DNA of 42,202 nt. It comes from a virus. Lineage: Duplodnaviria; Caudoviricetes. Position 1 is the first letter of the stretch. Each line of letters begins with the position of its first letter. The notes under the pieces were generated by a model, which did no database searches, was not told the origin of the DNA, and saw only the letters and a program-made list of their open reading frames with translations. The stretch is from the IMG/VR virus record IMGVR_UViG_3300023256_000008, positions 1 to 42,202 of that record. One strand, given 5' to 3'. Both the position numbers and the translations under genes were made by a program. Shown in pieces: positions 1-38,606 of this stretch.

Positions 1-370
1 CCTTGCTTATATCTTTTAATATTATATTTTTTTCAATTTTTTTGTCAATAGTAATCCCATATGATGCCAACGAAACTAACGAAATGTCAGAAATGATTTC
101 TTCCATATATTTTGATAAATTAATCTCTGATAAATTTTGATTAATGTATAATTTTTCATATGTTGATGATATTGCTCCTATTCTAGTTATGGCGCCGTTT
201 AAGATTTTTCGTCCTACTTTTGATCTTGTTTTCATACTTTGTAAATGAAGTAGGCTCATTAATAATTGATTATTATTTTTAACTCTATGGTGTATTTCTT
301 TTATTAGCACTTCTTTTTCTTTTAATGTTTTTTGTATTTGCGATAAGTAATTTTTTTTATCAGTTTTCAT
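1..370 (-). CDS. Sensor-less histidine kinase, HisKA_2 type (runs off window edge)
   Basis: Manual translation MKTDKKNYLSQIQKTLKEKEVLIKEIHHRVKNNNQLLMSLLHLQ; EIHHRVKNN is the HisKA_2 H-box. Confidence 0.8.
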   Translation of the reverse strand, partial: MKTDKKNYLSQIQKTLKEKEVLIKEIHHRVKNNNQLLMSLLHLQSMKTRSKVGRKILNGAITRIGAISSTYEKLYINQNLSEINLSKYMEEIISDISLVSLASYGITIDKKIEKNIILKDISK

Positions 371-386
371 AATATTTCCTTAATAT

Positions 387-4867: not shown

Positions 4868-5353
4868 TTAGTTTTTGTTTTCATTATTTTTCTCCTTTTC
4901 TATTTTTTGTGCTTCAAATGATTCAATTACAAAACAAACATCTTCGTATGTAAGACCATTATTCGGGTCTATTATAAGTTTTGTTAAATTATTACCAAAT
5001 CCAGAAAGTTCTTCAGCACAATCATCAAGAATTACAAACTCGTCAATATTATTTGTATCTATATATTCTTTAATTTCTGAAATGCGTTTGTTATTTTCTG
5101 CAATTGGTGTAACGCCAACACATTTGTCTCTGTATTTGAATTCTACTTTTTCAAGAATTTCTATTAAGCCTTCAAAAGTGAATTGCTCTCTCCACGAAGT
5201 TGAAAAAACAATATTGGCGTTTGTTCTTTCTATTAAGGTATTTAGCAATTTTACCTTTTCTTTCATTATTAAATCTGGATAATTACTCATGTTATGAAAC
5301 AAAAACTTGCCATTATTTAATACTCCATCAAAATCTAAAAATATTACTCTCAT
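4868..5353 (-). CDS. HAD phosphatase, RNA-repair associated (HAD_SAK-like)
   Basis: VIFLDFDGVLN, IVFSTSWR, FVILDD. Confidence 0.75.
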   Translation of the reverse strand: MRVIFLDFDGVLNNGKFLFHNMSNYPDLIMKEKVKLLNTLIERTNANIVFSTSWREQFTFEGLIEILEKVEFKYRDKCVGVTPIAENNKRISEIKEYIDTNNIDEFVILDDCAEELSGFGNNLTKLIIDPNNGLTYEDVCFVIESFEAQKIEKEKNNENKN

Positions 5354-5940: not shown

Positions 5941-6255
5941 TTAATCCCACCCGAAGTCATTATTGGCAAACTCATCCAGAGCGTTAAACATTTTGAAAAT
6001 AAATTCTTTTGTTGCATGAAATTTACATTTATTTTCGAATCCACCAGCATGTATATAAACTTCGTTTAATGTTTTGCATACTTCTGGGGACATATCTGCA
6101 ATAATAGTAATACCATTTGATGCCTTGAATTCTTTTTTTAAGGGAGTTAATTTGTTGGTCGGAAGTCTTGGTGAGTCAAATTCCAAAGAAAAATGTACAC
6201 CTTCAATGTGATTTAATTTTATTTTCATTTTTGGTGTGCGAGCATCTAACTTCAC
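5941..6255 (-). CDS. Hypothetical protein
   Basis: GTG start with AGGAAGG RBS. Confidence 0.6.
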   Translation of the reverse strand: MKLDARTPKMKIKLNHIEGVHFSLEFDSPRLPTNKLTPLKKEFKASNGITIIADMSPEVCKTLNEVYIHAGGFENKCKFHATKEFIFKMFNALDEFANNDFGWD

Positions 6256-7490: not shown

Positions 7491-8043
7491 TGGTGGAGGT
7501 GGTGGGACGTTATCTTAACTCTACTTTCTCAAACCATTTATAGTAGAGACGAGACTATCGCATCATCCCATAAGGATGTCTCTTCGCTTAGTCGTTCACG
7601 CTGGCACTACCCTTGCGCCCTGTCGTCCTATGGTAGGACTTCCAAGTCAATCAGAAGAGATTTATTCACTATACCTTTCAATACAGGTCGACAATTATAC
7701 TTATCGAACCCACGTCCACGAAGTCGCCTACTATAATTTTCTTACACACTTAGTTTATTTTACAATTTCAGATGCATCAAAAATAAACAAACCATACATC
7801 GCCCTCTTCGCCAGGTACATTGCGTTTCTACATGTTTTTATCATTGTTAGTAGTCACCAATTATCCTTCATTATGACTTCGATTTGCAGTGTAGAAAGAA
7901 TAGACACCGCACGAAGGGTGGCTTACGCCGCCATTAATTGGCTGTTGCCGTTTAATTTTGTTTTGCAACATAGTTCGTATGCTCGTTGCCATCATAGTGT
8001 GAATCATATAAGGCGGGTCTCCATGTCAAAACCGGTCACCCCC
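7491..8043 (-). ncRNA. ssrA: tmRNA interrupted by a group I intron
   Basis: GGGGGTG/CACCTCC-ACCA acceptor with G3.U70; tag frame GNSQLMAA* at 7923-7949; spliced length 358 nt. Confidence 0.92.
7508..7702 (-). mobile_element. Group I intron (195 nt, no ORF) in the tmRNA T-loop
   Basis: Exons rejoin as GTGGG-TTCGAT^T-CCCAC; 5' exon ends in U, intron ends in G; guide GTCGA pairs with exon TCGAT; P3 TCTCTTC/GAAGAGA; P7 GACTA/TAGTC. Confidence 0.85.
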
Positions 8044-8050
8044 TAATTAT

Positions 8051-8410
8051 TTAAAAACTTATTAATTTTGTCCAAACAAATGGTATATGACTTCCATATC
8101 CAAGTTCACTAATTATGTTAGTTGCGCCAGGAAAATTTAACGAATGCACATAAAGTGCAAACTTTGGTTTTTTTAAAGCATTTTTTGCCAACCATTGTGC
8201 CACTTCATACCCAGTACCCCCATCAGACTCTACCATTTCTAATCCGCCTAAGTCGTGGTCTAAGAATATATAGTCAAAAGGATTCTCTTTTCGTAATATT
8301 TTTATTGCTTTTTTACTTTCTTTTGCAATAGTTAAATCTGCATTTCTAAAGTTCTTACGAAATTGAGCAATTCTTTCATCGTTATCTTCCAATATAAAAA
8401 TTTTTGCCAT
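8051..8410 (-). CDS. Stand-alone receiver domain (cyclic-phosphate-processing type)
   Basis: ILEDN, IFLDHDLG, GTGYEVA, VHSLN. Confidence 0.7.
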   Translation of the reverse strand: MAKIFILEDNDERIAQFRKNFRNADLTIAKESKKAIKILRKENPFDYIFLDHDLGGLEMVESDGGTGYEVAQWLAKNALKKPKFALYVHSLNFPGATNIISELGYGSHIPFVWTKLISF

Positions 8411-9535: not shown

Positions 9536-10576
9536 CTAATACTCATTATCCAGTATATTTAGGAAATTTGCCCCAATTAATTGAGCAGTTTGTTTTCCAA
9601 CATTCTTATTTATTAATTTTCTGTCTTTCTTGACAAGTACATTTAATGCATCACTACCATTTTCTTCAATGTAATCTTTCATAACATCAGCAATAAATTC
9701 TTTGTTAAGTAAACCAAAATCTTTGTTTGTAATTTCTCCAATGTGAGATAAAACGTTACGTAATCTATTTTCAGTAACATACATGCTGATTTCTTCAACG
9801 ATAGGTTTGATTGCTTCATTGACTTCTTTTAATTGCTTTTTGGGTGCTTTGGTTTTTTCTTCCCATTTTTTATTTTTATTCTTAAATGCAACTCTAGATT
9901 TATCTCTAAAGTATAAATCTTCTACTGGCATAAATACATAACCTTCCATAATATTATCTTCTATTGGTGGAAGATCGAAATCCTTATATACTTCACTCAG
10001 CTCATCATTAGGTAAAGCTATCATTTCATCAAATGTACCAATAAATAAAACTTTTGGAGTTTTAAGTTTAGATTTTGTATATGTTAAACTTTCTATTAAT
10101 TCTGTCCAAGTAACGTGCCTATTTTTTGTATTATCGTCAAATATTAAAAGTATATCATAAATATATAATTCATTATGAGGGCAATAATATATGCCTTTTT
10201 GTACTTTTTTTCCACACTTATCATTTGATACATCTGGATGTGGATAAGTTCCACCAAACAGTTCACCAAATATAGCGATTTGATTAAGATTGGGATGTAT
10301 ATTTTTAAAGTATTTATATAGCTTTCTAGCATCTTCGGAATATTTTTCCATTATTAGTTCATAATTAAAAAAGAATTCATCTTTTTCGATAAAACTGGTT
10401 CTCTTTGCTGGTTTAATTTCGTCTTTATCAACCCACACAGAAAAATTTCCGCCATGAATTTTCTCAGTTGCAACCCATTTAATATCTGGCGCATCATATT
10501 CATGTTCCCTTACCATGTTGATAAATTTTTCTCTATAACTATTTTCTATACTTCTATACTTGATAAATCTTAACAT
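9536..10576 (-). CDS. RNA ligase, Rnl2 family
   Basis: EKIHGGNFS (motif I), FGELFGG, YDI, EGYV, FKNKN plus Rnl2-like C-domain. Confidence 0.9.
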   Translation of the reverse strand: MLRFIKYRSIENSYREKFINMVREHEYDAPDIKWVATEKIHGGNFSVWVDKDEIKPAKRTSFIEKDEFFFNYELIMEKYSEDARKLYKYFKNIHPNLNQIAIFGELFGGTYPHPDVSNDKCGKKVQKGIYYCPHNELYIYDILLIFDDNTKNRHVTWTELIESLTYTKSKLKTPKVLFIGTFDEMIALPNDELSEVYKDFDLPPIEDNIMEGYVFMPVEDLYFRDKSRVAFKNKNKKWEEKTKAPKKQLKEVNEAIKPIVEEISMYVTENRLRNVLSHIGEITNKDFGLLNKEFIADVMKDYIEENGSDALNVLVKKDRKLINKNVGKQTAQLIGANFLNILDNEY

Positions 10577-13669: not shown

Positions 13670-14038
13670 TTATTTAACTATGATTGTACAACCAATTTCT
13701 TCGAATCTTTTCTTTAGTCTATTGGCTTCATCTAAATTACAGCCTGTTGATAACGCAAGATTTTTCGCTTCAACTAAATCTTTTGTTTCTTTAAGCATTG
13801 TGCCTAATATAGTTCTTGCTTCTTTAATAACTCTGATTTTCTTTGTTGGTATAAAATCAGTCATTATAACGTCAAATTCTGTTTGTGCTTCTTCTTTTAC
13901 AACTTTCTGAACAATAATAGCTTCTGGTGGCCTCGCTACAATATCGAACTCCTTTTCAAGTGCCGAAGTCGTTTCGTTAAATTCCCACACTGACATTGTT
14001 TTGATAATGTCTAATACTTGTTTAATTTTCTCGCTCAT
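13670..14038 (-). CDS. rplL: Ribosomal protein bL12 (L7/L12) homologue
   Basis: IKTMSVWE..LEKEFDI N-domain; EEAQTEFDV, KIRVIKEAR, LKETKDLVE C-domain. Confidence 0.85.
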   Translation of the reverse strand: MSEKIKQVLDIIKTMSVWEFNETTSALEKEFDIVARPPEAIIVQKVVKEEAQTEFDVIMTDFIPTKKIRVIKEARTILGTMLKETKDLVEAKNLALSTGCNLDEANRLKKRFEEIGCTIIVK

Positions 14039-18043: not shown

Positions 18044-18238
18044 TTATTCTTCTGAATTTGATTTTTGTGGTAAATTATTCCACCATTTAATTGCATCATT
18101 GGCGTCTTCAAATCGACCTGACCTTATAAGACAAGATGTACATTGTATTACTGAATATTTGTCCAGCCCTACAATCCAACCATCCTCTTCGGTAATTTTA
18201 CATTCTTTCCCACAAAGTGGGCAATTATTTATTTTCAT
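18044..18238 (-). CDS. Lar-like zinc-ribbon protein
   Basis: CPLCG...CTSC...AIKWWN. Confidence 0.6.
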   Translation of the reverse strand: MKINNCPLCGKECKITEEDGWIVGLDKYSVIQCTSCLIRSGRFEDANDAIKWWNNLPQKSNSEE

Positions 18239-26842: not shown

Positions 26843-27730
26843 CTAAAATAAATTTGAATATTCTGCTTTAACTTTTGCAAATGTAAAATGTTGCAATGTT
26901 TTAAAGTTGATTACTGGATTCTTTTGTTTTTTGATTATTTGCCAAATTTCTTCTATAACAAAATCATGATAAACTGTATGTAATAATCTTGGAATATCTT
27001 TTGATCTGAATCCACCATCTTGCTCAATCTTAGCATACACTTTATCTATCATTGCTTTTGTAAGAAAAGAGTTAACCGCTTCTTCTTCTGGTATCTTAGT
27101 TCCATTTTGAAGTGGTGCGCCCATTGCTTTATGATGTTTTTCTTTGAATTCTGATCCAACAATTTTGGCCCATGTTGTTCTTCCATATTTATTTACATAA
27201 TCATATCTTTTTATAACAATTCCTTCACCAAAGCCTTTTCCATTTTCAATTAGATATTCATTCGCATCTAATAATTTTACAAACTGTTCATACGTTCCAT
27301 TCTTTAGAATTCTTATTGGTGGAATATATTCAACTCCAAAATCTTCAAGATACGATTGGTACTCATCATAATGTAAATAAGATTTATCAACCATCACATC
27401 AAAAACATAGAATTTTTTCCACGCATTTTTACGGTAAGTTTTTAAAGAATGAGGAACAAGCCATTCTCCAAAAAGTCTATGATTCGGAAATTTATTAAGA
27501 TAATTTAAGATATTTTTATCATGTATGATATCAGTGCAAAAACCAGCATTATCTTGTTCGATAGATAATTCTCTTCTTCTACTACCTGCACACAATTCGC
27601 CTTCGCACATCCATACGCTTGCATTTGTTCCGTCAATTTTTGGAAAAACATAACATTCTCCGAATTCGATTCCTTCAACTTCGGATGTGCCAAATCTTTC
27701 AATGTGTTGGTATTTTACAAAATCCATCAT
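26843..27730 (-). CDS. RNA ligase family protein (Rnl2-like)
   Basis: PKIDGTNAS, FGEWL, VFDV, EGIVIK, WAKIV. Confidence 0.85.
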   Translation of the reverse strand: MMDFVKYQHIERFGTSEVEGIEFGECYVFPKIDGTNASVWMCEGELCAGSRRRELSIEQDNAGFCTDIIHDKNILNYLNKFPNHRLFGEWLVPHSLKTYRKNAWKKFYVFDVMVDKSYLHYDEYQSYLEDFGVEYIPPIRILKNGTYEQFVKLLDANEYLIENGKGFGEGIVIKRYDYVNKYGRTTWAKIVGSEFKEKHHKAMGAPLQNGTKIPEEEAVNSFLTKAMIDKVYAKIEQDGGFRSKDIPRLLHTVYHDFVIEEIWQIIKKQKNPVINFKTLQHFTFAKVKAEYSNLF

Positions 27731-28470: not shown

Positions 28471-28677
28471 TTATTCGTATACTGGGTAAACGCACCACGT
28501 TAACCCATTTAATAATTTTATAATGTTCTTTGCATACCATGGAGCTTTTATTCCATTTTCATACGCAATGTGTTTGATAATACTTCTACATGATTTTCCG
28601 GCATAAAACTTATCGGTGTCAGAAATTGGGTTACAATTTTTGTCCGCTTTCCAAGCATGATATTTTATAATTTTCAT
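28471..28677 (-). CDS. Hypothetical protein
   Basis: First gene after a promoter module. Confidence 0.6.
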   Translation of the reverse strand: MKIIKYHAWKADKNCNPISDTDKFYAGKSCRSIIKHIAYENGIKAPWYAKNIIKLLNGLTWCVYPVYE

Positions 28678-28817: not shown

Positions 28818-28895
28818 TGGTGCTCCTGAAAAGAATCGAACTTTTACTTCCTGATTACGAAACAGGCGTGCTAATTCCGTTAACACTACAGGAGC
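28818..28895 (-). tRNA. tRNA-Thr(CGT)
   Basis: Cloverleaf, loop TTCGTAA, CCA. Confidence 0.85.
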
Positions 28896-28897
28896 AT

Positions 28898-28977
28898 AAA
28901 AAAATGAGTGTAAATAATTAGATTACTTACACTCATTAAAAAAATATGAGTAAATAATTAGATTACTTACTCATATT
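28898..28977 (-). terminator. Two tandem hairpins with the same loop, each followed by a U run
   Basis: aatgagtgtaa/ttacactcatt and aatatgagtaa/ttactcatatt. Confidence 0.55.
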
Positions 28978-28981
28978 GGAA

Positions 28982-29083
28982 CAGGATACTTGCTAATACC
29001 TTGCAGGGCGTTTTCTGCTCAAACTTTCGAAGGGCAGAATAGGGCTCGAACCTATAATTTTTTAATTTGCTGGCTGTATCCTT
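28982..29083 (-). ncRNA. Y-RNA-like RNA (CAGCAAA family) with T-arm
   Basis: AGGATAC/GTATCCT closing stem, CAGCAAA, ATAGG-TTCGAGC-CCTAT. Confidence 0.5.
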
Positions 29084-29279
29084 AATTATGTATTATCTTA
29101 ATATCTATTTTTAAGTTTTTTTGTTTGGCCATCATCAATAAAAATAATCTTTACTGCTTTACATATTTAGTTTCAACTTATTGAACTGGCTCTAAAGTTC
29201 CATATTGTAATTTTATCAATTGGTAAATTGCTTTTATTTTTCTGTAAATCACTACGCTTCAATTCTCTAACGTTTGTCA

Positions 29280-29870
29280 TTATAACATTCTTTTTTTTAT
29301 TTTATCAATCATTGTTTTTAATTGTTGGGCGGTAATATAACATGCTCTTTGTCCCATAATATTTGTTGCTGATTTAATTTCATTAGTATTGTTTTTATTT
29401 TCAAATATATATGGCCTACCTTTAACTTTAGTCAAAAATTCTCCAGATTTGCCGAATATAGCATTTTTGAATTTTCTTACTTTATGGTATCCAGGAAATT
29501 CAGCATTGTTTGTTCCAATTAATTCACTTTTTTCTCCGCCCTTATATACAAATAAAACACTATCTTGCTCAAATTCTTCGCCTAACTTAACTAGATGTTT
29601 TCTTAATTTTCCACCATCTTTTAAATCTACAACAAAATAAGTTTTTTCGCCAACTTCTTTCGCTTTTGATGTACCATAATCTTCTATATATCCGCCTATA
29701 ACAGAAGTTATTCCATAACCCATTGATTGTAATAATGCTCTTAATCTTTTGTTATTTATTAAATTTATTTTTTTTATATTATTGCCTCTAAATGCTGTAA
29801 TATATCCGGTATCATGAGCAAGCGAATGATCTCGCACTCTATTTAATGACTTCTCATTTAATTTTTTCAT
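29280..29870 (-). CDS. Phage hypothetical protein
   Basis: 196 aa, AGGAG RBS, GYITAFRG, FEQDSVL. Confidence 0.75.
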   Translation of the reverse strand: MKKLNEKSLNRVRDHSLAHDTGYITAFRGNNIKKINLINNKRLRALLQSMGYGITSVIGGYIEDYGTSKAKEVGEKTYFVVDLKDGGKLRKHLVKLGEEFEQDSVLFVYKGGEKSELIGTNNAEFPGYHKVRKFKNAIFGKSGEFLTKVKGRPYIFENKNNTNEIKSATNIMGQRACYITAQQLKTMIDKIKKRML

Positions 29871-30010
29871 AATGTACTCCTTAATTTATATTAGTATATA
29901 TAAAGAAATTTATTCAAATTCTATTTTAAGTATAAGTATATTTTCTTTATCTAATTTTTCAAATAATTCTTTATCAACTATAATATACCCATTGATCGTA
30001 TCCTAAAAAA

Positions 30011-30098
30011 TGGTGCAGATGGTGGGACTTGAACCCACAACTCAAAACCGCTGTTAAACGGGTACTCTCCCAATTTTAGTATTACGAGATACATCTGC
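30011..30098 (-). tRNA. Atypical tRNA, anticodon undetermined
   Basis: Good acceptor, T-arm and CCA; enlarged D-arm; irregular loop TTTAACAG. Confidence 0.55.
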
Positions 30099-30105
30099 AT
30101 ATTTT

Positions 30106-30181
30106 TGGCGCCCAATATTGGAATTGAACCAATGACCCCATCCTTGCCAAGGATGCCATCTTCCATCTGAACTAAGAGGGC
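30106..30181 (-). tRNA. tRNA with GGC anticodon on a Thr-like body (possibly pseudo)
   Basis: CATCC-TTGGCAA-GGATG; acceptor has two mismatches and no G3.U70. Confidence 0.6.
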
Positions 30182-30188
30182 ATGTCGT

Positions 30189-30635
30189 TTAATCTATTTG
30201 TTTGAATATTGCAAATTCATGTTTCTTCTTTCCTATTCTTGTAAAGTGAGAAAGCCCTTCTGGTATATCTTTGCCTGATTTATTCCAATTTTTTCTTGCT
30301 TGACTTCTTGATTTAAATATTCCAAAATCTACAAGAATACTGAACACGTCAGTTTCTTTGGGAATCAAAGTCCATTCGTCTGAACCGAAAAGTCTTTCTA
30401 AAAATTTATTGTCAAGATTGTCTGACTCAACGACAAGATTTCTATTAATTCTTTCAGAAAAGAAATTGCCTTTAAATAAATGTGAATCATCAAAAACTTC
30501 ATTTAGTTCAAGAATATGTATATCGTCACCGTATGTTCCTTTAAGAATTGCGGTAACATATTCAATATCAATTCCTCGTTGTTCAAGTTTGAAAATTGTA
30601 TTACCTTTAATAAATCTTACTTTAAACTCTTTAAT
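30189..30635 (-). CDS. Protein with C-terminal S4-like segment; apparent ATT start; not in ORF track
   Basis: 148 open codons after AAGGAG-N7-ATT; ILVDFGIFKSRSQARKN...RIGKKK. Confidence 0.65.
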   Translation of the reverse strand: MKEFKVRFIKGNTIFKLEQRGIDIEYVTAILKGTYGDDIHILELNEVFDDSHLFKGNFFSERINRNLVVESDNLDNKFLERLFGSDEWTLIPKETDVFSILVDFGIFKSRSQARKNWNKSGKDIPEGLSHFTRIGKKKHEFAIFKQID

Positions 30636-30771
30636 TTTATTTCTCCTTATTTTTTCTCACTTACTTTACTATAGTATTCTTTCAGGGAATTTTGTCAAGT
30701 TTATTCTAATAAAAACTGACGTTCTTTGCTTCTTCGTTAAGCTTTAATTCTCTTAGCTACAGATACAGAAA

Positions 30772-31077
30772 ATAGATGGCGGGGATTTGACGAGATGAAG
30801 CCGTAACTCTATCCGTACTAAGAACAGTAACTTTGTCTCGATACTCGTATAGTCACCCCGCATGGTTATCGTTTGTAGCTTTCCTTTGTATTCTGCCACA
30901 CTCATTAAATACAAACTTGGTTAAGTCGCCATTCCTGTTTGACTTTAACTACTACCTCGTTTCATATGTGGTTGATAATTCTGGCTATTAAGTATTGTCA
31001 CAAATACTCCAAAATGTCTCACAGTCAAGATTGATAAACCTCACCGATTTAGCGTTTACCTATTCCGCCACATCTAT
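30772..31077 (-). ncRNA. 306-nt expanded tRNA-like RNA
   Basis: ATAGATG/CATCTAT acceptor, Leu-type D-arm, GCGGGG/CCCCGC T-stem, large helical insertions. Confidence 0.55.
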
Positions 31078-31087
31078 TAAAAAAGTC

Positions 31088-31149
31088 GGAACACATTTTT
31101 TCTTAATTGGAAGTTAAGTTTCTTTTTTTTATTTGCTGGATGTGTTCCT
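31088..31149 (-). ncRNA. CAGCAAA-family small RNA
   Basis: GGAACACAT/ATGTGTTCC stem, CAGCAAA, apical CTTAA-CTTCCAA-TTAAG. Confidence 0.5.
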
Positions 31150-31279
31150 ATATAATTTGTTACTAATCATATCTCGTTAGTTACGAAATAGATGATTAAC
31201 TACTTATGAATGTTAGTAAATACCAACATTAAGTATCATTTTTGCAGTTAATGTTAGCAAATACACACATTGATTTTTG

Positions 31280-31363
31280 TGGCGGAGGGGCAGGGGCTCG
31301 AACCCTGAAACCCGCAGGCGCATGGTTAGCAACCATGTTGTTTACCAATTAACATACCTCTCC
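31280..31363 (-). tRNA. tRNA-Ser(GCT)
   Basis: Cloverleaf with variable arm, GCCA. Confidence 0.85.
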
Positions 31364-31454
31364 TAATTTCATTAATTATATTTAATCACTAATCCTAATA
31401 CTATTAAATCTTTCTTTTCTGAAATAACAATTTTTTTATTGGGATTGCATTCAA

Positions 31455-31733
31455 TTACTTTTTTCCTTTTTCGTCAAAATATGCAATACACTTTCCAGTC
31501 TTTCGACCATATTTTAATACAATGTATAAGTTATCATCTTTGAATCTAAAATCGCCACGCAAAGTATTAACCAATAAGTCTTTGTCTATAGTATTTCTTA
31601 TTGTTTCTGTTAATGTGTCGATTCTCATTCTTTCATCTCTTTTTGTGTTCTCTGTAAGCTTCAATCTTGCTTCGTTAGTAGTTAAGGTTAACTTGTTAGT
31701 GGAACCCTTTGTCTCAATTACTCTTATTTTCAT
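31455..31733 (-). CDS. Hypothetical protein
   Basis: GAGGGG RBS, promoter upstream. Confidence 0.65.
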   Translation of the reverse strand: MKIRVIETKGSTNKLTLTTNEARLKLTENTKRDERMRIDTLTETIRNTIDKDLLVNTLRGDFRFKDDNLYIVLKYGRKTGKCIAYFDEKGKK

Positions 31734-31882
31734 TATTTTCCCCTCTTCTTATTATGAATATAATATAATTATGTATGGAATAATGTCAATTAATTTTTTA
31801 ATTTTTATTCAAATCATCTTTAATCCGTATAGCTCATAAGATGATTTTGTTTTTCTAATTGGCATTATTTCATTTGATGCCC

Positions 31883-32266
31883 CTAAACTTTCTTGTAATT
31901 TGTATAATTTTTTTCTTCAATAAGTTCGGAGCCAAATTTCAAATTAATCTTTCTTTTAATATCACTTCTCGTATCATTCTTCCAATAAACGCTTCTGGCA
32001 AGTTCAATGAATTTTTCATCAAATTCTTTGTTAAATTCTTTTATACGAATTTCATCTTCAATATGCCATAATTTTGAATTTACATTTCTTAATTCATTAT
32101 ATTCATCTGAAGTACTTAAAATGCCAACTTCGTTAATTGCATCTTTCAAAAGTTGATATTCTTTTTTAATGTTCTTTAGTTTTCCACTATCGGTAACCTT
32201 TTCTAATTTGATTTCGAGAATAGTTACTTTGTCAACTGCTTCGCCAATTGATATTTCGACTTTCAT
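31883..32266 (-). CDS. DUF6165-like protein
   Basis: ISIGEAVDKVTILEIK...LWHIEDEIR...LARSVY..ND.R..IK. Confidence 0.75.
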   Translation of the reverse strand: MKVEISIGEAVDKVTILEIKLEKVTDSGKLKNIKKEYQLLKDAINEVGILSTSDEYNELRNVNSKLWHIEDEIRIKEFNKEFDEKFIELARSVYWKNDTRSDIKRKINLKFGSELIEEKNYTNYKKV

Positions 32267-32276
32267 TTTTTCTCCA

Positions 32277-32678
32277 TTATTGCTCTTTAATTAATTGAGT
32301 TGCCTTTACTTTGGTGATAAGATTTCCATATATAGAACTGCTTAAATCTTTTGATATATTTTTCAATACTTCTCTGCGTAATTTTCTGCCATAATTAATC
32401 TGTGTATATTTGTATTGGTTACGATATGCTTCCAACTCTTGGCTTAATCTAAATTCAGGTTCATTAAAATATCTATCCCACCATATATCTTTGCCCATTT
32501 TCTCCTGTTGCCTTTGATGTGTTTCTTCATGTTTCATTAAATCATGTGAAATTGAATGGGCATTTGGTGCATATAATATATCTCCATAAGTAAATATAAC
32601 GCCTTGCTTATTAGCAACTGTTGGAAAGTGTTTTATTATCTCCAAATAATTAGGCGGCCTCTTATGTTCTATTTTCAT
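32277..32678 (-). CDS. HExxH-motif protein
   Basis: HEETH..QQ...ELEAY. Confidence 0.65.
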   Translation of the reverse strand: MKIEHKRPPNYLEIIKHFPTVANKQGVIFTYGDILYAPNAHSISHDLMKHEETHQRQQEKMGKDIWWDRYFNEPEFRLSQELEAYRNQYKYTQINYGRKLRREVLKNISKDLSSSIYGNLITKVKATQLIKEQ

Positions 32679-32879
32679 CTAATTTTCCGTATAGAATAAT
32701 GAATATAAAGTCCATAATTCATTTAATAAAAAATGCTTTATGTTTCTAATTTCAATAAGCCTGTCATAAACTTTCTGCTCTTCATTCTTTTCAACTGAAA
32801 TATAATAATCTAATTGAGACTCTTCAATTGATAATTTTTTAATTCGTTTGAGTAATTTTAATGCTTTAAAAATTTTCAT
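32679..32879 (-). CDS. Hypothetical protein
   Basis: AGGAG RBS. Confidence 0.6.
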   Translation of the reverse strand: MKIFKALKLLKRIKKLSIEESQLDYYISVEKNEEQKVYDRLIEIRNIKHFLLNELWTLYSLFYTEN

Positions 32880-32894
32880 AATTTCTCCTTAAAA

Positions 32895-32984
32895 TGGCAG
32901 AGAGTCTGAGATTCGAACTCAGGGAGGGCTTGCGCCCTCAATGGTTTTCAAGACCATCGCATTCAACCACTCTGCCAACTCTCT
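32895..32984 (-). tRNA. tRNA-Ser(TGA)
   Basis: Loop CTTGAAA, long variable arm. Confidence 0.9.
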
Positions 32985-33150
32985 AAAAATGTCCCAATAC
33001 AAATCACCTACAAACAAGGTCGACCTTCGTAAGTATATGTTTTGTATACCGATTGGGGCGGATTGCAAACGTTCCCTAAACATTACAGGCTGTCACCTGT
33101 AGATATATATATATGTATAAATTATGATAAAACAATATTTTTCTAAAAAA

Positions 33151-33228
33151 TGGTGGACCTGGCGAGGCATGATCTCGCAATTATTCTTCCGTGCAAGGGA
33201 AGTGCCATCCCAATTAGGCGACAGGCCC
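33151..33228 (-). tRNA. tRNA-Ala(TGC)
   Basis: G3.U70; atypical T-loop ATCATGC. Confidence 0.8.
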
Positions 33229-33251
33229 GTATATATTTATTACTTTAAATT

Positions 33252-33329
33252 TGGCAGGCACGGAGGTATTCGAAACCCCGACACGAGGTTTTGGAGACCC
33301 CTGCTCTAACCGGACTGAGCTACGCACCT
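33252..33329 (-). tRNA. tRNA-Trp(CCA)
   Basis: Loop CTCCAAA, G73. Confidence 0.9.
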
Positions 33330-33397
33330 ATAATATTATACCCGATAAGGTATAATTTTGCTGAATTGTTTCTATATTATACCCGATAAGGTATATT

Positions 33398-33485
33398 AGT
33401 CAACCTATGTATTGACAATTCATAGTAAAAAGTCAACCTATGTATTGACAATTCATAGTAAAAAGTCAACCTATGTATTGACAAT
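33398..33485. repeat. 33-bp tandem repeat, about 2.7 copies
   Basis: agtcaacctatgtattgacaattcatagtaaaa. Confidence 0.9.
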
Positions 33486-33490
33486 AAAAA

Positions 33491-33565
33491 TGGTGGAGAG
33501 TATAGGTTTCGATCCTATTCCTTTGGTACTTCACACCAAAATGCCACCGGTTACACCAACTCTCC
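33491..33565 (-). tRNA. tRNA-Phe(GAA), atypical
   Basis: TTGGT-GTGAAGT-ACCAA; T-loop ATCGAAA. Confidence 0.7.
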
Positions 33566-33738
33566 ATAAAAGAAACATAAATATCAATGCTGTATGCTCT
33601 TGCTAATTTAATCAATACATCTGTCAATGTAGTCACGAATCCAAATAACAATTACCCACTCGTCGTAAGGCGTTTGACCAGAGTTAGCTGACAGGCAAGG
33701 ATTCTCGCTCACATATATGCATCTTTACTTATTAAACT

Positions 33739-33862
33739 ATTTGTTGGTAGGAGTCGAACCTACAATTAATTACTGGAGTCGAACCAGATTTGGATATTAT
33801 CCCTATGTCCCACATAGCTCTCCGTATTAGGAAGAGGCGTTTACCACTTTCACCACAACAAA
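33739..33862 (-). ncRNA. tRNA-like RNA with two T-arms, AAT anticodon position, no CCA
   Basis: TTTGTTG/CAACAAA; two GGTTCGACTCC arms; two extra hairpins. Confidence 0.6.
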
Positions 33863-33874
33863 TATTTAAAAATT

Positions 33875-33951
33875 TGGTCGGGCCGGCAAGGTTCGAACTT
33901 GCAATAACCAGAATCAAAACCTGGTGTCTTAGCCATTTAGACGACGGCCCA
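33875..33951 (-). tRNA. tRNA-Gln(TTG)
   Basis: Loop TTTTGAT. Confidence 0.85.
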
Positions 33952-33963
33952 TTAATAATATAT

Positions 33964-34039
33964 TGATGCAAGTGACAGAAATTAAACCTACATTGACGGA
34001 TTAAGAGTCCGTTGTAAAATCAATGTTTGCTACACCTGC
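33964..34039 (-). tRNA. tRNA-Lys(CTT), degenerate
   Basis: ACGGA-CTCTTAA-TCCGT; poor D and T arms, ends TCA. Confidence 0.6.
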
Positions 34040-34047
34040 GTAAAATT

Positions 34048-34125
34048 TGAGGTATGCGATGGAAGTCGAATCCACATCTACAGGGGTCACGATCCTGTGC
34101 TTTATTTATTTAAGTTACGCATACC
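34048..34125 (-). tRNA. tRNA-His(GTG), degenerate
   Basis: G-1/C73, C33, ends TCA. Confidence 0.65.
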
Positions 34126-34373
34126 ATATAAGATTCGTTTCTTCTGCCATTACATTCTACTGACAGAGCATTAGAATCATTTTAATTTGCAACAGTAAGT
34201 ACAATATATTGTACTTACAAGAGAAAGTTATGTTGAAATTTATCGCTTTCTTTAACATAACTATTGTCTCATGTTGAAGAAATACGTTTTTTTTAACATA
34301 AAAATTTGAACTATTGGTCAGCATTACCTGTTTCTATTTAGTACCACGTAGAGGTTGTTCAATTTACTAAATG

Positions 34374-34448
34374 TAGCCATCCTGAGACTCGAACTCAGAC
34401 TGTACAGCGTTTGAAACTGCTTCCTCTTCCAGATTGGGATAGATGGCC
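34374..34448 (-). tRNA. tRNA-Leu(CAA) with short variable loop
   Basis: GCAGT-TTCAAAC-GCTGT. Confidence 0.7.
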
Positions 34449-34512
34449 TTATATAACAAAATCAGGATACATTTTTTGCTTGCTTTACTACTTAAGCTAT
34501 CTCCCAATAAAA

Positions 34513-34591
34513 TGGTACAGACGAAGGGACTCGAACCCTCATATGACGCAGGATATGATTCTGCCGCTTCATCCAATTGAGCCACGTCTGC
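34513..34591 (-). tRNA. tRNA(CAT), Met or Ile2
   Basis: Loop ATCATAT. Confidence 0.75.
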
Positions 34592-34599
34592 ATAAAATT

Positions 34600-34675
34600 T
34601 GGCACCCCTGGAGAGATTCGAACTCCCGACTTAAAATTCGTAGTTTTATATGATATCCAATTTCACCACAGGGGC
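34600..34675 (-). tRNA. tRNA-Arg(ACG)
   Basis: Loop CTACGAA. Confidence 0.9.
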
Positions 34676-34681
34676 ATAAAT

Positions 34682-34760
34682 GATTTAAGTAGTAAAAGTG
34701 GAATCGAACCACCATTTGTCTAAAAGGCCTTGCTCAACCGCATCCTATACTAATTAAATC
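34682..34760 (-). ncRNA. Small T-arm-containing RNA
   Basis: GATTTAA/TTAAATC closing stem, GTGG-TTCGATT-CCAC. Confidence 0.4.
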
Positions 34761-34765
34761 TAAAA

Positions 34766-34842
34766 TGGAATCGGTGCCGAGACTCGAACTCGGAATTTGT
34801 AGGGTTGCAATCTACCGCCTTAGCCAATTTAGCTACACCGAC
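34766..34842 (-). tRNA. tRNA-Cys(GCA)
   Basis: Loop TTGCAAC, U73. Confidence 0.9.
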
Positions 34843-34850
34843 ATAAAATT

Positions 34851-34935
34851 TGGTACTCCTGGAGAGACTCGAACTCTCACGACCTTTCGGCCACCTGCTT
34901 CTAAGGCAGGCGTGTATTCATTCCACCACAGGAGC
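34851..34935 (-). tRNA. tRNA-Leu(TAG)
   Basis: Loop CTTAGAA, variable arm. Confidence 0.9.
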
Positions 34936-34946
34936 ATATAAAAAAA

Positions 34947-35035
34947 TGGTAGGCAAGGTGGGAGCCGAACCCACAACAGGCTTTCGCCACACTGGATTTT
35001 AAGTCCAGCCGATAATCCAATTCTCGTACTTGCCC
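34947..35035 (-). tRNA. tRNA-Leu(TAA)
   Basis: Loop CTTAAAA, variable arm. Confidence 0.85.
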
Positions 35036-35077
35036 ATTTATTTTACCGTTACATATAATTATTTTAAATTAAAAAAT

Positions 35078-35173
35078 ATGTAAAAGATAGGATTTGAACC
35101 TATAAAATAGAACTACTAATTCTATCTGACCCCCCTTCGGGGCTTTAGATTGCCACTTTCTTCACTTTTACAT
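35078..35173 (-). ncRNA. tRNA-like RNA without a normal anticodon arm or CCA
   Basis: ATGTAAAAG/CTTTTACAT; ATAGG-TTCAAAT-CCTAT. Confidence 0.5.
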
Positions 35174-35182
35174 ATTAAAATT

Positions 35183-35234
35183 TGGTATCCTACGGCCGAG
35201 AACCGTAAATCCTTACCATTTAGACGATGAGAAC
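35183..35234 (-). pseudogene. tRNA-Glu(CTC) remnant lacking the T-arm
   Basis: D-arm and TACGG-TTCTCGG-CCGTA followed directly by GGATACCA. Confidence 0.6.
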
Positions 35235-35242
35235 ATAAAGCT

Positions 35243-35328
35243 TGGTACGCCCGACGGGGTTCGAACCCGCTTCCCCATAATGGGACCAGAGTGAAAGTCT
35301 GGTGACCTGCCAATTAGTCATCAGGCGC
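35243..35328 (-). tRNA. tRNA-Glu(TTC) with long variable arm
   Basis: Loop CTTTCAC; variable arm TCCCATTATGGGGA. Confidence 0.8.
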
Positions 35329-35334
35329 ATAAAA

Positions 35335-35410
35335 TGGTATCCCTACAAGGATTCGAACCTTGACTATAAGTTTAGGAAACTCAAGTGCTTATCCATTACA
35401 CTATAGGGAC
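35335..35410 (-). tRNA. tRNA-Arg(CCT)
   Basis: Loop TTCCTAA. Confidence 0.9.
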
Positions 35411-35416
35411 ACAAAA

Positions 35417-35493
35417 TGGGGTATGAAACGGAAATCGAATCCGCATCTACAGGAGCCACAATCCTGTGCTTTTCCAATTAAGCTATTCACACC
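35417..35493 (-). tRNA. tRNA-His(GTG)
   Basis: G-1/C73, loop TTGTGGC. Confidence 0.9.
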
Positions 35494-35500
35494 ATAAAAT

Positions 35501-35578
35501 TGGTGCAGGCGGCGGGAATCGAACCCACATTTCCCGCTTAAAAGGCGGATGCCAAGACCAGTAATTTGCTACGCCTGC
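35501..35578 (-). tRNA. tRNA-Lys(TTT)
   Basis: Loop CTTTTAA. Confidence 0.85.
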
Positions 35579-35586
35579 TTGAAAAA

Positions 35587-35663
35587 TGGTACGGGCGGTT
35601 GGGCTTGAACCAACATTTCCTCGCTTATAAGACGAGTTCCTTCACCGAGTCGGACACACCCGC
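35587..35663 (-). tRNA. tRNA-Ile(TAT)
   Basis: Loop CTTATAA. Confidence 0.85.
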
Positions 35664-35676
35664 ATAATTGAAAGTT

Positions 35677-35753
35677 TGGTACGCCAGGGTGGAATCGAAC
35701 CACCAATCTTCCGGATATCAGCCGAACGCTCTAACCGACTAAGCCACTGGCGC
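35677..35753 (-). tRNA. tRNA-Ile(GAT)
   Basis: Loop CTGATAT. Confidence 0.9.
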
Positions 35754-35761
35754 ATATAATT

Positions 35762-35848
35762 TGGTAGGAGTAGAAGGATTCGAACCTACTTAGCCAACAG
35801 GCGTCCGGCCTACAACCGGGTGGAGTTCACCGTCACTCCAGTACTCCC
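35762..35848 (-). tRNA. tRNA-Tyr(GTA)
   Basis: Loop TTGTAGG, variable arm. Confidence 0.8.
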
Positions 35849-35856
35849 AAAAAAAA

Positions 35857-35932
35857 TGGTGCTCTTGGAGAGACTCGAACTCCCAACGACCTACTTACAA
35901 GGCAGGGCTTCTTCCAATTGAATTACAAGAGC
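35857..35932 (-). tRNA. tRNA-Thr(TGT)
   Basis: Loop CTTGTAA. Confidence 0.9.
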
Positions 35933-35937
35933 AAAAA

Positions 35938-36068
35938 CAGGATAATATTTTTTATTCCAACGTGTCTACCAATTTCACCATTACTAACTATCAATTAGTA
36001 AGTAGGACTCGAACCTACACGACATTACATCATCAGATTTTAATTTTTGGTTTGCTGTTATTATCCTT
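35938..36068 (-). ncRNA. YrlA-like RNA (circularly permuted tRNA on a CAGCAAA stem)
   Basis: AGGATAATA/TATTATCCT; order T-arm, loop-closed acceptor TTACTAA/TTAGTAA, D-arm. Confidence 0.65.
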
Positions 36069-36078
36069 AATATTAAAA

Positions 36079-36155
36079 TGGCGGGGATAACGGGACTTGA
36101 ACCCGTACTCTCTGCCTTGACAGGGCAGCGACTTGACCAATTCGTCTATATCCCC
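36079..36155 (-). tRNA. tRNA-Asp(GTC)
   Basis: Loop CTGTCAA, G73. Confidence 0.9.
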
Positions 36156-36216
36156 ATGTATTAAATAATCTTTTTTGTTATTTTCTTTTAATTTTTCGTT
36201 CACATCTCTATAAATT

Positions 36217-36301
36217 TGGTGCGAGTGGTAAGATTCGAACTTACTTAGCCTAGGCGTCAGCTTTACAGGCTGGTGCAACTCTCCCACGTTGCCGCACTCG
36301 C
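36217..36301 (-). tRNA. tRNA-Tyr(GTA)
   Basis: Loop CTGTAAA, variable arm. Confidence 0.85.
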
Positions 36302-36340
36302 ATAAAACTTAATCAGCAACATATTACTGATTATAAAAAA

Positions 36341-36416
36341 TGGCTGTCCTGGAGGGGCTTGAACCCACATTTGTCACGTTAACAGCGTGCCGCCTTACCG
36401 AGTTGGCTACAGGACA
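36341..36416 (-). tRNA. tRNA-Asn(GTT)
   Basis: Loop CTGTTAA, G73. Confidence 0.9.
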
Positions 36417-36423
36417 ATAAAAA

Positions 36424-36500
36424 TGGTACCCAGCATCGGACTTGAACCGATACAACCTATCTTGTAAGGATAGTGCTCTCCCAAATTGAGCTAGCTGGGC
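36424..36500 (-). tRNA. tRNA-Val(TAC)
   Basis: Loop CTTACAA. Confidence 0.9.
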
Positions 36501-36512
36501 ATAAATTAATAA

Positions 36513-36591
36513 TGGTGGAGATACTGGGATTTGAACCCAGCTGACGTCCTGATTGCAAAACAGGTGACCACCCCTAGCAGTCCCTATCCCC
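36513..36591 (-). tRNA. tRNA-Ala(TGC)
   Basis: G3.U70, loop TTTGCAA. Confidence 0.85.
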
Positions 36592-36600
36592 GTGTAAAAA

Positions 36601-36677
36601 TGGTACACCCGATGAGACTTGAACTCATAACTTCAGCCTTAAAAGGGCCGTACTCTGCGCAATTGAGTTACGGGTGC
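36601..36677 (-). tRNA. tRNA-Lys(TTT)
   Basis: Loop CTTTTAA. Confidence 0.9.
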
Positions 36678-36700
36678 ATAAAAAATAAAATATATAAAAA

Positions 36701-36776
36701 TGGCACCCCCACAAGGATTCGAACCTTGACTATAAGTTTAGAAAACTTAAGTGCTCGTCCATTACACTATAGGGGC
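36701..36776 (-). tRNA. tRNA-Arg(TCT)
   Basis: Loop TTTCTAA; near-duplicate of Arg(CCT). Confidence 0.9.
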
Positions 36777-36794
36777 ATAAAAAATATAATAATA

Positions 36795-36874
36795 TGGTGG
36801 AGACGGAGGGTATCGAACCCTCGAACTAAACGTTCCATTTGTTGGTTTACGTTCAGTTTCACCTTTTCGCCCCC
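36795..36874 (-). ncRNA. 80-nt RNA resembling the tmRNA tRNA-like domain
   Basis: GGGGGCG/CGTCTCC-ACCA with G3.U70, no D-stem, long helix in place of the anticodon arm, canonical T-arm. Confidence 0.65.
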
Positions 36875-36953
36875 TGGGAACGGATTGCGGAGTTGAACCA
36901 CATTTAATACTGGCTTATGAAACCTGCCGAGATACCGACCTCGTCCATCCGTG
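36875..36953 (-). tRNA. tRNA(CAT), atypical, 1:72 mismatch
   Basis: Loop TTCATAA, CCA. Confidence 0.65.
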
Positions 36954-36969
36954 TCGTAATAATAATAAA

Positions 36970-37044
36970 TGGAGCGGGCTGGGGGTTACAATCCCCCGAC
37001 TAATGGTTGGAAGCCACTTATTTTGTCAATTAAACTAAGCCCGC
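36970..37044 (-). tRNA. tRNA-Gly(TCC)
   Basis: Loop CTTCCAA, U73; atypical T-loop ATTGTAA. Confidence 0.8.
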
Positions 37045-37063
37045 TTAAATTGTTTTTTTATTT

Positions 37064-37140
37064 TGGTCGGGTGAGCCAGAATCGAACTGGCTAATCCAGG
37101 TTTCCAGAACCCAGATGCTTATAGCCTTAGTCACCACCCG
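37064..37140 (-). tRNA. tRNA-Pro(TGG), atypical
   Basis: C1-G72, A73, loop TCTGGAA, extended anticodon stem. Confidence 0.75.
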
Positions 37141-37208
37141 TTATTTGTCTTATAATATATTGTATGCTATAAACATACAATTGTATTCCTTAAACATACA
37201 ATAAAAGT

Positions 37209-37266
37209 CAGGACATATTTATTTACTTTACAATAGTAGTTTTTTTAATTTGCTGTATATGTCCTT
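37209..37266 (-). ncRNA. CAGCAAA-family small RNA
   Basis: AGGACATAT/ATATGTCCT stem with ACAGCAAA. Confidence 0.5.
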
Positions 37267-37280
37267 TACATATATAATAT

Positions 37281-37324
37281 TGGTACCGAAGGGCAGACTC
37301 GAACTGCCAACCTTTAGATTATGA
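37281..37324 (-). pseudogene. 3' half of a disrupted tRNA(CAT)
   Basis: TCATAA-TCTAA-AGGTT-GGCAG-TTCGAGT-CTGCC-CTTCGGT-ACCA. Confidence 0.8.
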
Positions 37325-38107
37325 CTTCATAATTATTAATTCGCACTCATAACCATTATTCTTATACATTTTAAATTTATCATCCATATTTTGTTTATTA
37401 TAAGTATAATTACATTTTATTTCTACTATTTTATTTTCCAAAGGTAAGTAAAAATCTGGTATTGCTATACTATATCTTTTTTTTTGAGTATCATAATATA
37501 TAAGCCTTTTTGATTCCATTTCATATGGAATTTTTTGTTTGTCTAAATTTTTGGCATATCTTAGTTCGTAACTGCTTCTGTAAAATACTTGTTTTCCGTG
37601 CCAAGTTGTATGCCATCCATGTTTGTACTTGTTTTCACAAGGCATATTACGTCTATTATTATGCAAACAAATTAATTGAGCCTTAGATTTTCTTCTCATA
37701 GAAATTTTATGTTTATTAAAGAAATTACGTAACGATAATTCATGTATATTAAATTTTTCTTGTATTTCCAATGATGATAGTTGTAAGTTATTATATAAAT
37801 ATCATAATTTTTGTAATGCTTCGTGCCCTGCCTCTTTTAATGATAGGTCGGTATAATTTATATCTAACCTGTCAAATAATAGTTTATTTTGTATATATTT
37901 ATGACATTCAAAGCAATATTTTTTCTTACTTTTGGGCGTTTTATTATTACAACTAATACAATAAGTTTGTGTATTTTTTTGTAATGAATTGCTTATTTTT
38001 TCTTTTGTTTTTTGAGAATGATTTCGAGAATTGGCGCAACTTCTGCCACAAAACCTTCCAGAACCATAATTGCCGTCATGTTCTTTATTACAATTTTCAC
38101 ATTTCAT
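37319..38107 (-). CDS. Homing endonuclease-like protein (Zn ribbons, NUMOD3, TnsA-like nuclease); needs TGA=Trp x1
   Basis: Tracked ORFs 37802-38107 and 37319-37771 are in frame across a single TGA; YRSSYE, IPDF, VEIK; 262 aa. Confidence 0.8.
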
Positions 38108-38180
38108 AATTGTTCTCCTATATTAATAAGTATAGTCGAACCTAAAAATTTAGTATATATTTTTTTATATACCAAAAAAA

Positions 38181-38257
38181 TGGTAGCGATAACTGGACTT
38201 GAACCAGTAACCTCACAAGATATGAGCTTGGAATTCTACCAATTGAACTATATCGCC
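38181..38257 (-). tRNA. tRNA(CAT), probably Met
   Basis: GGCGATA/TATCGCT-ACCA, loop CTCATAT. Confidence 0.85.
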
Positions 38258-38420: not shown

Positions 38421-38453
38421 AAAAAAGCCCAAGACTTTAGGTTCTTGGGCTTT
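38421..38453 (-). terminator. Attenuator terminator upstream of the tRNA array
   Basis: AAAGCCCAAGA/TCTTGGGCTTT plus U run. Confidence 0.8.
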
Positions 38454-38474
38454 ATAATATATTTATATCTTAAC

Positions 38475-38606
38475 TTATATAAAGCCCGGCGGTCCCAATT
38501 CACCAAAAATCGCATCCACTGTATTCATATTTCTATGGCAATACGGACGTTCCTGTGGTGTCCATGTTGATAACGATTTGAGTGATATTGAACTTTGCTT
38601 TTTCAT
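38475..38606 (-). CDS. Putative leader peptide (43 aa, all 20 amino acids)
   Basis: AAGGA RBS; MKKQSSISLKSLSTWTPQERPYCHRNMNTVDAIFGELGPPGFI*; last codons form the antiterminator arm. Confidence 0.75.
   Translation of the reverse strand: MKKQSSISLKSLSTWTPQERPYCHRNMNTVDAIFGELGPPGFI

Follow-up and report, generated by a model that had tools for sequence, protein, structure and literature searches.

Transfer-messenger RNA (tmRNA) is processed at its 5′ end by RNase P, charged with alanine and bound by EF-Tu (PMC3929946, PMC8363625), and its partner protein SmpB is reported both to protect it and to enhance its aminoacylation (PMC3929946). According to E. coli structures, Trp122 of SmpB sits in a pocket formed by A15, U17, and A334, G19 stacks on SmpB together with C18, and a G19C mutation abolishes tmRNA function (PMC8363625). 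The tRNA-like domain (TLD) can also occur without a message. The tmRNA of mycobacteriophage DS6A is classed as "TLD only" (PMC4131195, PMC11915505), and both sources cite Mao et al. (2009) for the report that a DS6A-like molecule strongly inhibits tmRNA in E. coli, perhaps by titrating SmpB. The tmRNA database is described as holding 9 "standard, no CDS" genes among 97,179, with one phage case named, although it may contain more (PMC11915505). CDS-less tmRNAs are also described from jakobid and related mitochondria (RF02544) and, at ~65 nt, from Mallomonadaceae plastids; here too the tmRNA has been cut down to its TLD, but each is the sole tmRNA of its compartment, and the mitochondrial ones are usually permuted and accompanied by a nucleus-encoded SmpB (PMC11915505). 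The gene examined here, in contrast, is viral and lies beside a full-length tmRNA gene. No paper on the TLD-only form as widespread in phages, or as occurring alongside a full tmRNA, was found in the open-access literature.

The window, which is the whole 42,202-nt stretch of DNA that was analyzed, is a viral contig, linear in form and, according to CheckV, 13% complete. The short gene, referred to here as the mini (Table 1), consists of a TLD with no message, as the original prediction had stated: it contains no tag frame, its fold has a minimum free energy of -31.9 kcal/mol (z -3.96, with 0 of 200 shuffles as stable), and it matches both the tmRNA model RF00023 (38.4 bits, E 4.9e-12, below the gathering score of 47) and a family covariance model (63.1 bits, the mini being in the training set). 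The predicted G3·U70 pair, A73, encoded CCA, and missing D-stem are all seen in the fold of 36874 to 36795. Nucleotides 1–7 pair with 70–76 along the entire acceptor stem (7/7), in which G3·U74 is equivalent to the 3:70 pair of tRNA, and nucleotides 17–26 pair with 42–51 in a long helix of 10 bp that includes one G·U. In the P2-like arm, the conserved C-G pair closes a core helix of 8 bp, and two further possible A-U pairs (probabilities 0.77 and 0.48) fall where tmRNA has its GA/GA elbow. Two predicted details required refinement. The helix is indeed capped, though instead of a plain loop it has a small hairpin that follows an A-rich internal loop, and the T-arm has the canonical 5-bp stem and 7-nt loop, with an A at T-loop position 60. 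The junction without a spacer to the CCA of the upstream tRNA was confirmed, though that tRNA is an odd Met(CAU)-like gene with a C1·U72 mismatch (read by eye).

Table 1. Coordinates of the mini, its parts and related features (window positions, except for the last four rows, which refer to the loci named).
Feature	Positions	Strand	Evidence and remarks
TLD-only (tag-less) mini-tmRNA gene	36795-36874	-	80 nt, CCA encoded; fold, RF00023, family model
Acceptor stem, 5′ strand	36868-36874	-	G3 at 36872; fold; G3·U74 pair probability 1.0
D-loop, short, without D-stem	36859-36867	-	9 nt; conserved GG; pyrimidine-rich UUCGA of the family altered
P2-like arm replacing the entire mRNA-like domain	36824-36858	-	Helix, A-rich internal loop, small apical hairpin; fold, family covariation
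Connector 5′ of the T-stem	36823-36825	-	UUC, versus GAC in tmRNA; A334 equivalent lost
T-arm	36806-36822	-	5 bp and 7-nt loop; fold
Acceptor 3′ strand, discriminator A, CCA	36795-36805	-	U at 36801 pairs with G3
Atypical tRNA-Met(CAU)-like gene	36875-36953	-	CCA abuts base 1 of the mini, zero spacer; relaxed ARAGORN only
Phage tRNA array containing the mini	28818-38257	-	33 of the window's 34 ARAGORN calls, plus atypical tRNA-like genes
Full-length phage tmRNA, canonical elbow	7491-8043	-	RF00023, 47.9 bits; 553 nt, intron form
Group I intron in the T-loop of the full tmRNA	7508-7702	-	195 nt; RF00028, 28.5 bits, E 2.7e-05; boundaries read by eye
Mini of phage Tomas (L429), downstream of tRNA-Val	5976-6056		Unannotated
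Mini of phage Riptide (L433), downstream of tRNA-Val	302-381		Unannotated
Mini of phage BRock (L434), downstream of tRNA-Val	304-384		Unannotated
Mini of phage Jay2Jay (L435), downstream of tRNA-Val	303-382		Unannotated

Alignment to a tmRNA covariance model had been named as a check on the prediction, and tmRNA is the best clan match for the mini in Rfam. A generic TLD pattern finds one match in the window and none in 100 shuffles. The family covariance model, which was built from 60 sequences including the window mini and leaving out DS6A, gives 64.0 bits to DS6A and at most 26 bits to the tRNAs of the window. With the DS6A gene, which was located at 28478-28560 of JN698994 (tmID 11587 / Phage__Mycobacterium.9), the mini shares a length of ~80 nt (and thus below 100 nt), a 7-bp acceptor stem with G3·U70, the discriminator A and the CCA position, a stemless D-loop with GG, a T-arm, the standard gene order, a phage genome as carrier, and a P2 helix on which a short cap (an A-rich internal loop and a small hairpin) takes the place of the mRNA-like domain and its tag frame. 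On the other hand, UCGA-C and the A334 equivalent are retained in DS6A, whose gene ends without an encoded CCA and whose genome lacks a full tmRNA, whereas the mini has a UGAAA-C / UUC elbow, an encoded CCA, a large tRNA array around it, and a companion full tmRNA. A standard tmRNA (RF00023), which acts with SmpB (PF01668), has in common with the mini the tRNA-like domain, alanine identity, and the start of helix P2; at 80 nt, with an arm of only 35 nt from D-loop to connector, the mini is without pseudoknots, resume codon, and tag frame, and its SmpB-contact elbow is altered. We regard it as almost certain that the mini is a real TLD-only tmRNA gene of the published DS6A kind, and it is counted as a variant of that kind because it fails the canonical SmpB-elbow test described below.

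The mini is neither an assembly error nor a chimera. Contigs from three of four public DNA runs, one of which may be the source of the window, span it without differences (the fourth run gives no cover), and in those three runs the depth over the mini matches that over the full tmRNA region (62 versus 60.3 in X13, the possible source). The sequencing runs listed for the window contig comprise 24 DNA runs, 23 from salt lakes and one marine, with no RNA run among them.

The full tmRNA of the window, which the prediction had placed at 7491-8043, is likewise real by its RF00023 match, and was missed by ARAGORN. A group I intron interrupts its T-loop at a place that matches T-loop position 7, the main intron site in tmRNA genes; the smallest known intron-form gene is given as 545 bp (PMC11915505). 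Its tag frame (~7967-7923, minus strand, after the first pseudoknot) reads CKTKLNGNSQLMAA-stop and is intact, which makes a plausible tag with a putative resume codon.

All 34 tRNA genes that ARAGORN calls in the window are on the minus strand, as are the features given below with their positions. Besides the Met(CAU)-like gene at 36875-36953, atypical tRNA-like genes at 33738-33863, 33967-34039, and 34051-34124 were called only at the relaxed threshold or by Rfam. An 88-nt cloverleaf-like RNA at 30011-30098 (z -3.26) has an encoded CCA, a small anticodon-arm loop, and a weak RF00023 match (E 3.6e-06) without G3·U70; by the family model, which gives it 23.9 bits, it does not belong to the mini-tmRNAs. 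An isolated T-arm and acceptor 3′ strand with CCA (37281-37308) lies just downstream of an endonuclease-like ORF (37319-37771, PHROG endonuclease matches), which may mean that a mobile element has split a tRNA gene here. A short ORF followed by a terminator-like hairpin (38424-38600) lies upstream of the array's first tRNA and resembles a leader or attenuator. The window also encodes a full-length homolog of ribosomal protein bL12 (L7/L12) at 13670-14038, whose best matches in deposited phages are less than 40% identical, and a set of RNA-repair and anti-defense genes (4868-5353, 8051-8410, 9536-10576, 26843-27730, 29280-29870, and 18044-18238), the domains found being HAD_SAK_2 (HAD RNA-repair), cREC_REC, two RNA ligases, SAM lyase, and Lar. 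The rest of the window includes genes for three DNA methyltransferases. No integrase domain occurs among the 79 ORFs scanned, and no SmpB or RF-1 domain in this 13%-complete contig. A promoter scan, which returned 28 AT-rich consensus sites versus 13.5 expected, gave no useful information.

Minis are widespread among viral contigs. The generic pattern has an estimated ~980 matching stretches in IMG/VR, of which 120 were sampled; position 70 is U in 107 of these, although the pattern permits C or U. Among the 108 unique matches, 95 have G3·U70 and 89 were retained as minis, after removal of 13 without the G·U pair, five plain ARAGORN tRNA calls, and one 3′ part of a full tmRNA (L016). The median length of the family is 81 nt. 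In a 60-sequence alignment, P2 positions are paired in 82.4% of cases versus 46.0% when shuffled (0 of 500 shuffles as high), changes on both sides are found at 6/6 pairs, and every slid register scores lower. An 18-sequence set that includes the window mini gives 92.5% versus 57.0% shuffled, in a register that was picked through the slide control after the data had been seen (one column off, 30.8% is paired). Carriers are mostly small phages with the mini outside tRNA arrays, at least three tRNAs being present in only 4 of 50 two-kilobase loci, and none of the 50 viral records with a mini that were searched, and none of five isolates, has an SmpB gene. A separate full-length tmRNA occurs in one (G048) of 118 mini-bearing records, most of which are fragments (49 + 48 + 21 searched, G007 left out), and in 1 of the 28 that are at least 90% complete. 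Matches to the pattern in GTDB are mostly tRNA-Ala genes and tmRNA ends (84 of 120 overlap ARAGORN tRNA or tmRNA calls; of the 36 other unique matches, ~4 are mini-like by eye); the family is not a general chromosomal gene.

Close relatives of the window mini were searched for in several ways. BLAST against 50,697 phage records returned T-arm matches only, none covering 80% of it, and the exact 16-nt 5′ pattern has eight viral loci, one of them another mini (L004) and seven by chance. Searches with neighboring proteins led to distant loci only (3, 7, and 0), and the family model finds nothing in the five searched of the seven. Two other RNA forms were encountered. One is a 127-nt tmRNA-like TLD with a longer multi-hairpin insert, an intermediate-length form (L130, 13742-13868, plus strand), whose 158-kb record has no full tmRNA match. 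The other is a separate class of G3·U70 tRNA-like RNAs of 69–76 nt with a reduced D-arm and non-Ala anticodon-like loops, which are missed by ARAGORN and are found in viral, metagenome, and bacterial contigs (L133, L134, L195, L204, L216, L287, L297, L327, L334, and others).

The elbow that contacts SmpB sets the window mini apart. The canonical elbow consists of U17-C18-G19-A20 in the D-loop and G333-A334-C335 in the connector, where the mini has UGAAA and UUC, respectively. Full tmRNAs have a YGAY-type D-loop in 26 of 26 cases and an A at the A334 position, at a fixed offset, in 24 of 26 (in the other two, GGAC is displaced by 1–2 nt); the full tmRNA of the window has a canonical elbow. At the equivalent position of the minis, two bases before the T-stem, the window copy has a U, which none of the 89 family members has, while 83 have A. 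One register has changes at every one of the equivalents of G19, C18, U17, G333, and A334; the other keeps the D-loop GA equivalent to G19-A20 but leaves a connector of one base, and A334 is missing in both. The D-loop GG is retained, as are the closing C-G pair and the equivalent of C335. A strict test for the canonical elbow (GG-N2-6-GA-Y plus GAC) is passed by 42 of the 89 family members, and by the BRock mini, and failed by 47; it over-calls loss of binding, because DS6A fails it (connector CAC) yet is reported to inhibit tmRNA. Patterns for this elbow were run on viral and metagenome sequences: AA...UUC has 0 viral matches, and the UC-connector pattern has five, none similar to the mini, as well as 120 metagenome loci (102 unique, 84 overlapping ARAGORN tRNAs), one of which is an identical copy (L240). 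These patterns found no non-identical relative with the exact elbow, and the evidence for selection, which is that of the family fold, is for this reason not extended to the window copy. Judged by its nucleotides, the window mini likely binds SmpB weakly or not at all.

The same pairing of a mini with a full tmRNA is found in cultured Streptomyces phages, to which a BLAST search with one family member led. With a required coverage of at least 80% of its length, the Jay2Jay mini has matches in 85 records (some are GenBank/RefSeq duplicates), and no Streptomyces row among the matches listed has an annotation at the mini site; the Streptomyces phage genome papers list one tmRNA in their abstracts. 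A full tmRNA is also present in all 12 of the Streptomyces phages tested, with a canonical elbow in 3/3 inspected; BRock has its mini after tRNA-Val as well, but gives no full tmRNA match. Wherever a full tmRNA accompanies the mini, which is so in 14 cases (the window, G048, and the 12 phages of Streptomyces), the mini fails the strict elbow test, yet these cases represent three independent lineages (Fisher p = 0.25), so that the tie between altered elbow and full tmRNA is a lead and not a result. The elbow sequence is variable among the Streptomyces orthologs: Tomas and Riptide keep the A at -2, and three Karimacvirus-type minis have a 4-nt GAUA connector and may keep GA. Four Streptomyces minis, folded with approximate ends, have z values of +0.49 to -1.13, which are not significant. 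The minis of Stanwilliamsviridae (Jay2Jay, Tomas, Riptide, Peebs, and others) and of BRock resemble that of the window in being TLD-only, in lying in a tRNA array, and in their apical cap, and, BRock's apart, those tested also in the non-canonical elbow and companion full tmRNA; they differ in their GGGU(U/C)UG acceptor stems, in not encoding the CCA, and in their elbow substitutions. Alignment scores give no sign that they are its nearest kin, and an "apical-loop subfamily" joining the two is unsupported by the same scores. The 340-kb record G048 (locus L086) contains, besides its mini and full tmRNA, a gene with an RF-1 domain and two Pth2 matches.

A tentative interpretation of the window mini, to which we would give somewhat less than an even chance, is that it is an SmpB-detuned, alanine-charged mimic of tRNA that serves as a decoy for host factors attacking tRNA or tmRNA. 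By analogy with tmRNA biochemistry, the mini would be cut from the transcript of the tRNA array by RNase P cleavage at G1, and since the spacer is zero, this one cut would also finish the CCA of the Met-like tRNA. Host AlaRS would then charge it through G3·U70 and A73, and EF-Tu would bind its acceptor and T arms. The equivalents of A334 and U17 being gone, the Trp122 pocket would be lost, and the mini would therefore neither strongly titrate SmpB nor efficiently enter stalled ribosomes; such weak binding would leave the phage's own full tmRNA working. More speculatively, the retained acceptor arm, T-arm, D-loop GG, and capped P2 could absorb host defense nucleases or sensors aimed at tRNA or tmRNA. 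CoCoNuTs are host systems with a predicted action on tmRNA (PMC11090510), and a decoy fits the RNA-repair and anti-restriction island of the window, with its two RNA ligases and other domains. Counting against such a mimic, the role of SmpB in protecting and charging tmRNA means that an RNA which does not bind SmpB may be unstable or poorly charged. A broader form of the proposal seems unlikely to us: that large phages already encoding a full tmRNA maintain an additional TLD without a message, whose SmpB site is rebuilt while alanine identity, T-arm, and capped P2 stay under selection, and that these would make up an SmpB-independent subclass of aminoacylated tRNA mimics with a new partner (a host defense nuclease or sensor, or a phage protein) and a function distinct from that of the DS6A competitor, unannotated in dozens of cultured Streptomyces phages.

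The original prediction had instead proposed an SmpB decoy or a tag-less rescue RNA. Such a DS6A-like mini would bind host SmpB, perhaps more weakly, and either titrate it or rescue stalled ribosomes as Ala-TLD·SmpB without a degradation tag. This suits the family, as the DS6A form is reported to inhibit endogenous tmRNA in E. coli (PMC4131195, PMC11915505) and a TLD-only RNA to accept peptidyl transfer in vitro (PMC3895274), but we consider it somewhat unlikely for the window copy. The shared architecture, the conserved D-loop GG and GA, C-G closing pair, and C335 equivalent, and the lack of SmpB genes in the 50 records and five isolates (consistent with use of host SmpB) have to be set against an A334 equivalent absent in either register and changed U17 and C18 equivalents; with these contacts altered, and with a strong SmpB sponge expected to inhibit the phage's own intact tmRNA, the decoy is weakened here. 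For the finishing of tag-less rescue, a release-factor or Pth2 domain is found in only one of five records (G048), Pth (PF01195) in 0 of 5, and RF-1 is absent from the 13%-complete window contig. The mini could also be a drifting relic, once canonical and now redundant or harmful beside the full tmRNA, with its SmpB site eroding in a permissive tRNA array. The array does hold other degenerate tRNA-like genes, the elbow varies among Streptomyces orthologs, and the exact elbow has no non-identical relative. Even so, a relic appears quite unlikely, as the acceptor stem (7/7), T-stem (5/5), and 10-bp P2 are intact, G3·U70, A73, and CCA are kept, and the changes are concentrated at the elbow, where they create two A-U pairs. 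Moreover, mini and full tmRNA are kept together with compensatory changes in 12/12 of the Streptomyces phages tested, and one contig that differs nearby by three substitutions and a 21-nt deletion has the mini unchanged, which with so few differences is weak evidence.

A different partner, such as a phage stand-in for SmpB, might instead bind the rebuilt elbow or the apical hairpin, in a private complex for rescue or translation control. Ten of the 12 Streptomyces copies, together with G048 and L477, share an identical AAAG-CC-GACAAU-GG cap, and a similar one is present in the window mini, whose phage also encodes the bL12 homolog; the likeness of the cap is nevertheless weak, because the mini is no closer to these copies than to ordinary family members and loops containing ACAA occur family-wide, and with no candidate protein found we judge a different partner to be very unlikely. 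It is hardly credible that the mini represents a decayed tRNA-Ala (RF00005), one part of a permuted tmRNA gene, or a fragment of an attachment site. Its Rfam score is below gathering and comparable to those of ordinary tRNA-Ala genes (37–44 bits), the UC before its T-stem is tRNA-like, and there is a partial match to the permuted two-piece model RF04321. But homologs showing a decayed tRNA-Ala, which the prediction had offered as its disproof, were not borne out: P2 covaries across the family, whose model separates the mini (63 bits) from the tRNAs of the window, and the mini has neither a D-stem nor a 7-nt anticodon loop with an Ala anticodon, nor an ARAGORN call at the default or relaxed threshold. 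The permuted form was likewise rejected, since the two strands of the acceptor stem follow the standard order within a single 80-nt unit that has tRNA neighbors on both sides (tRNA-Arg downstream). The scanned ORFs include no integrase domain.

The TLD-only kind of tmRNA is already known from DS6A, and the window copy is set apart by its companion full tmRNA and its altered elbow; were it only drifting, it would count among the ordinary members of that kind. What changes is the breadth of the form, which is present in an estimated hundreds of viral contigs and in 85 Streptomyces phage records, versus one named phage case, and this suggests that phages commonly manipulate or mimic trans-translation. 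That one genome pairs a full tmRNA of canonical type with a mini whose elbow is altered makes a testable contrast, and BRock (canonical, mini only) and Jay2Jay (altered, with full tmRNA) are a cultured pair in which a direct test is possible. If the altered minis do not bind SmpB and yet are kept, the family would have a second job.
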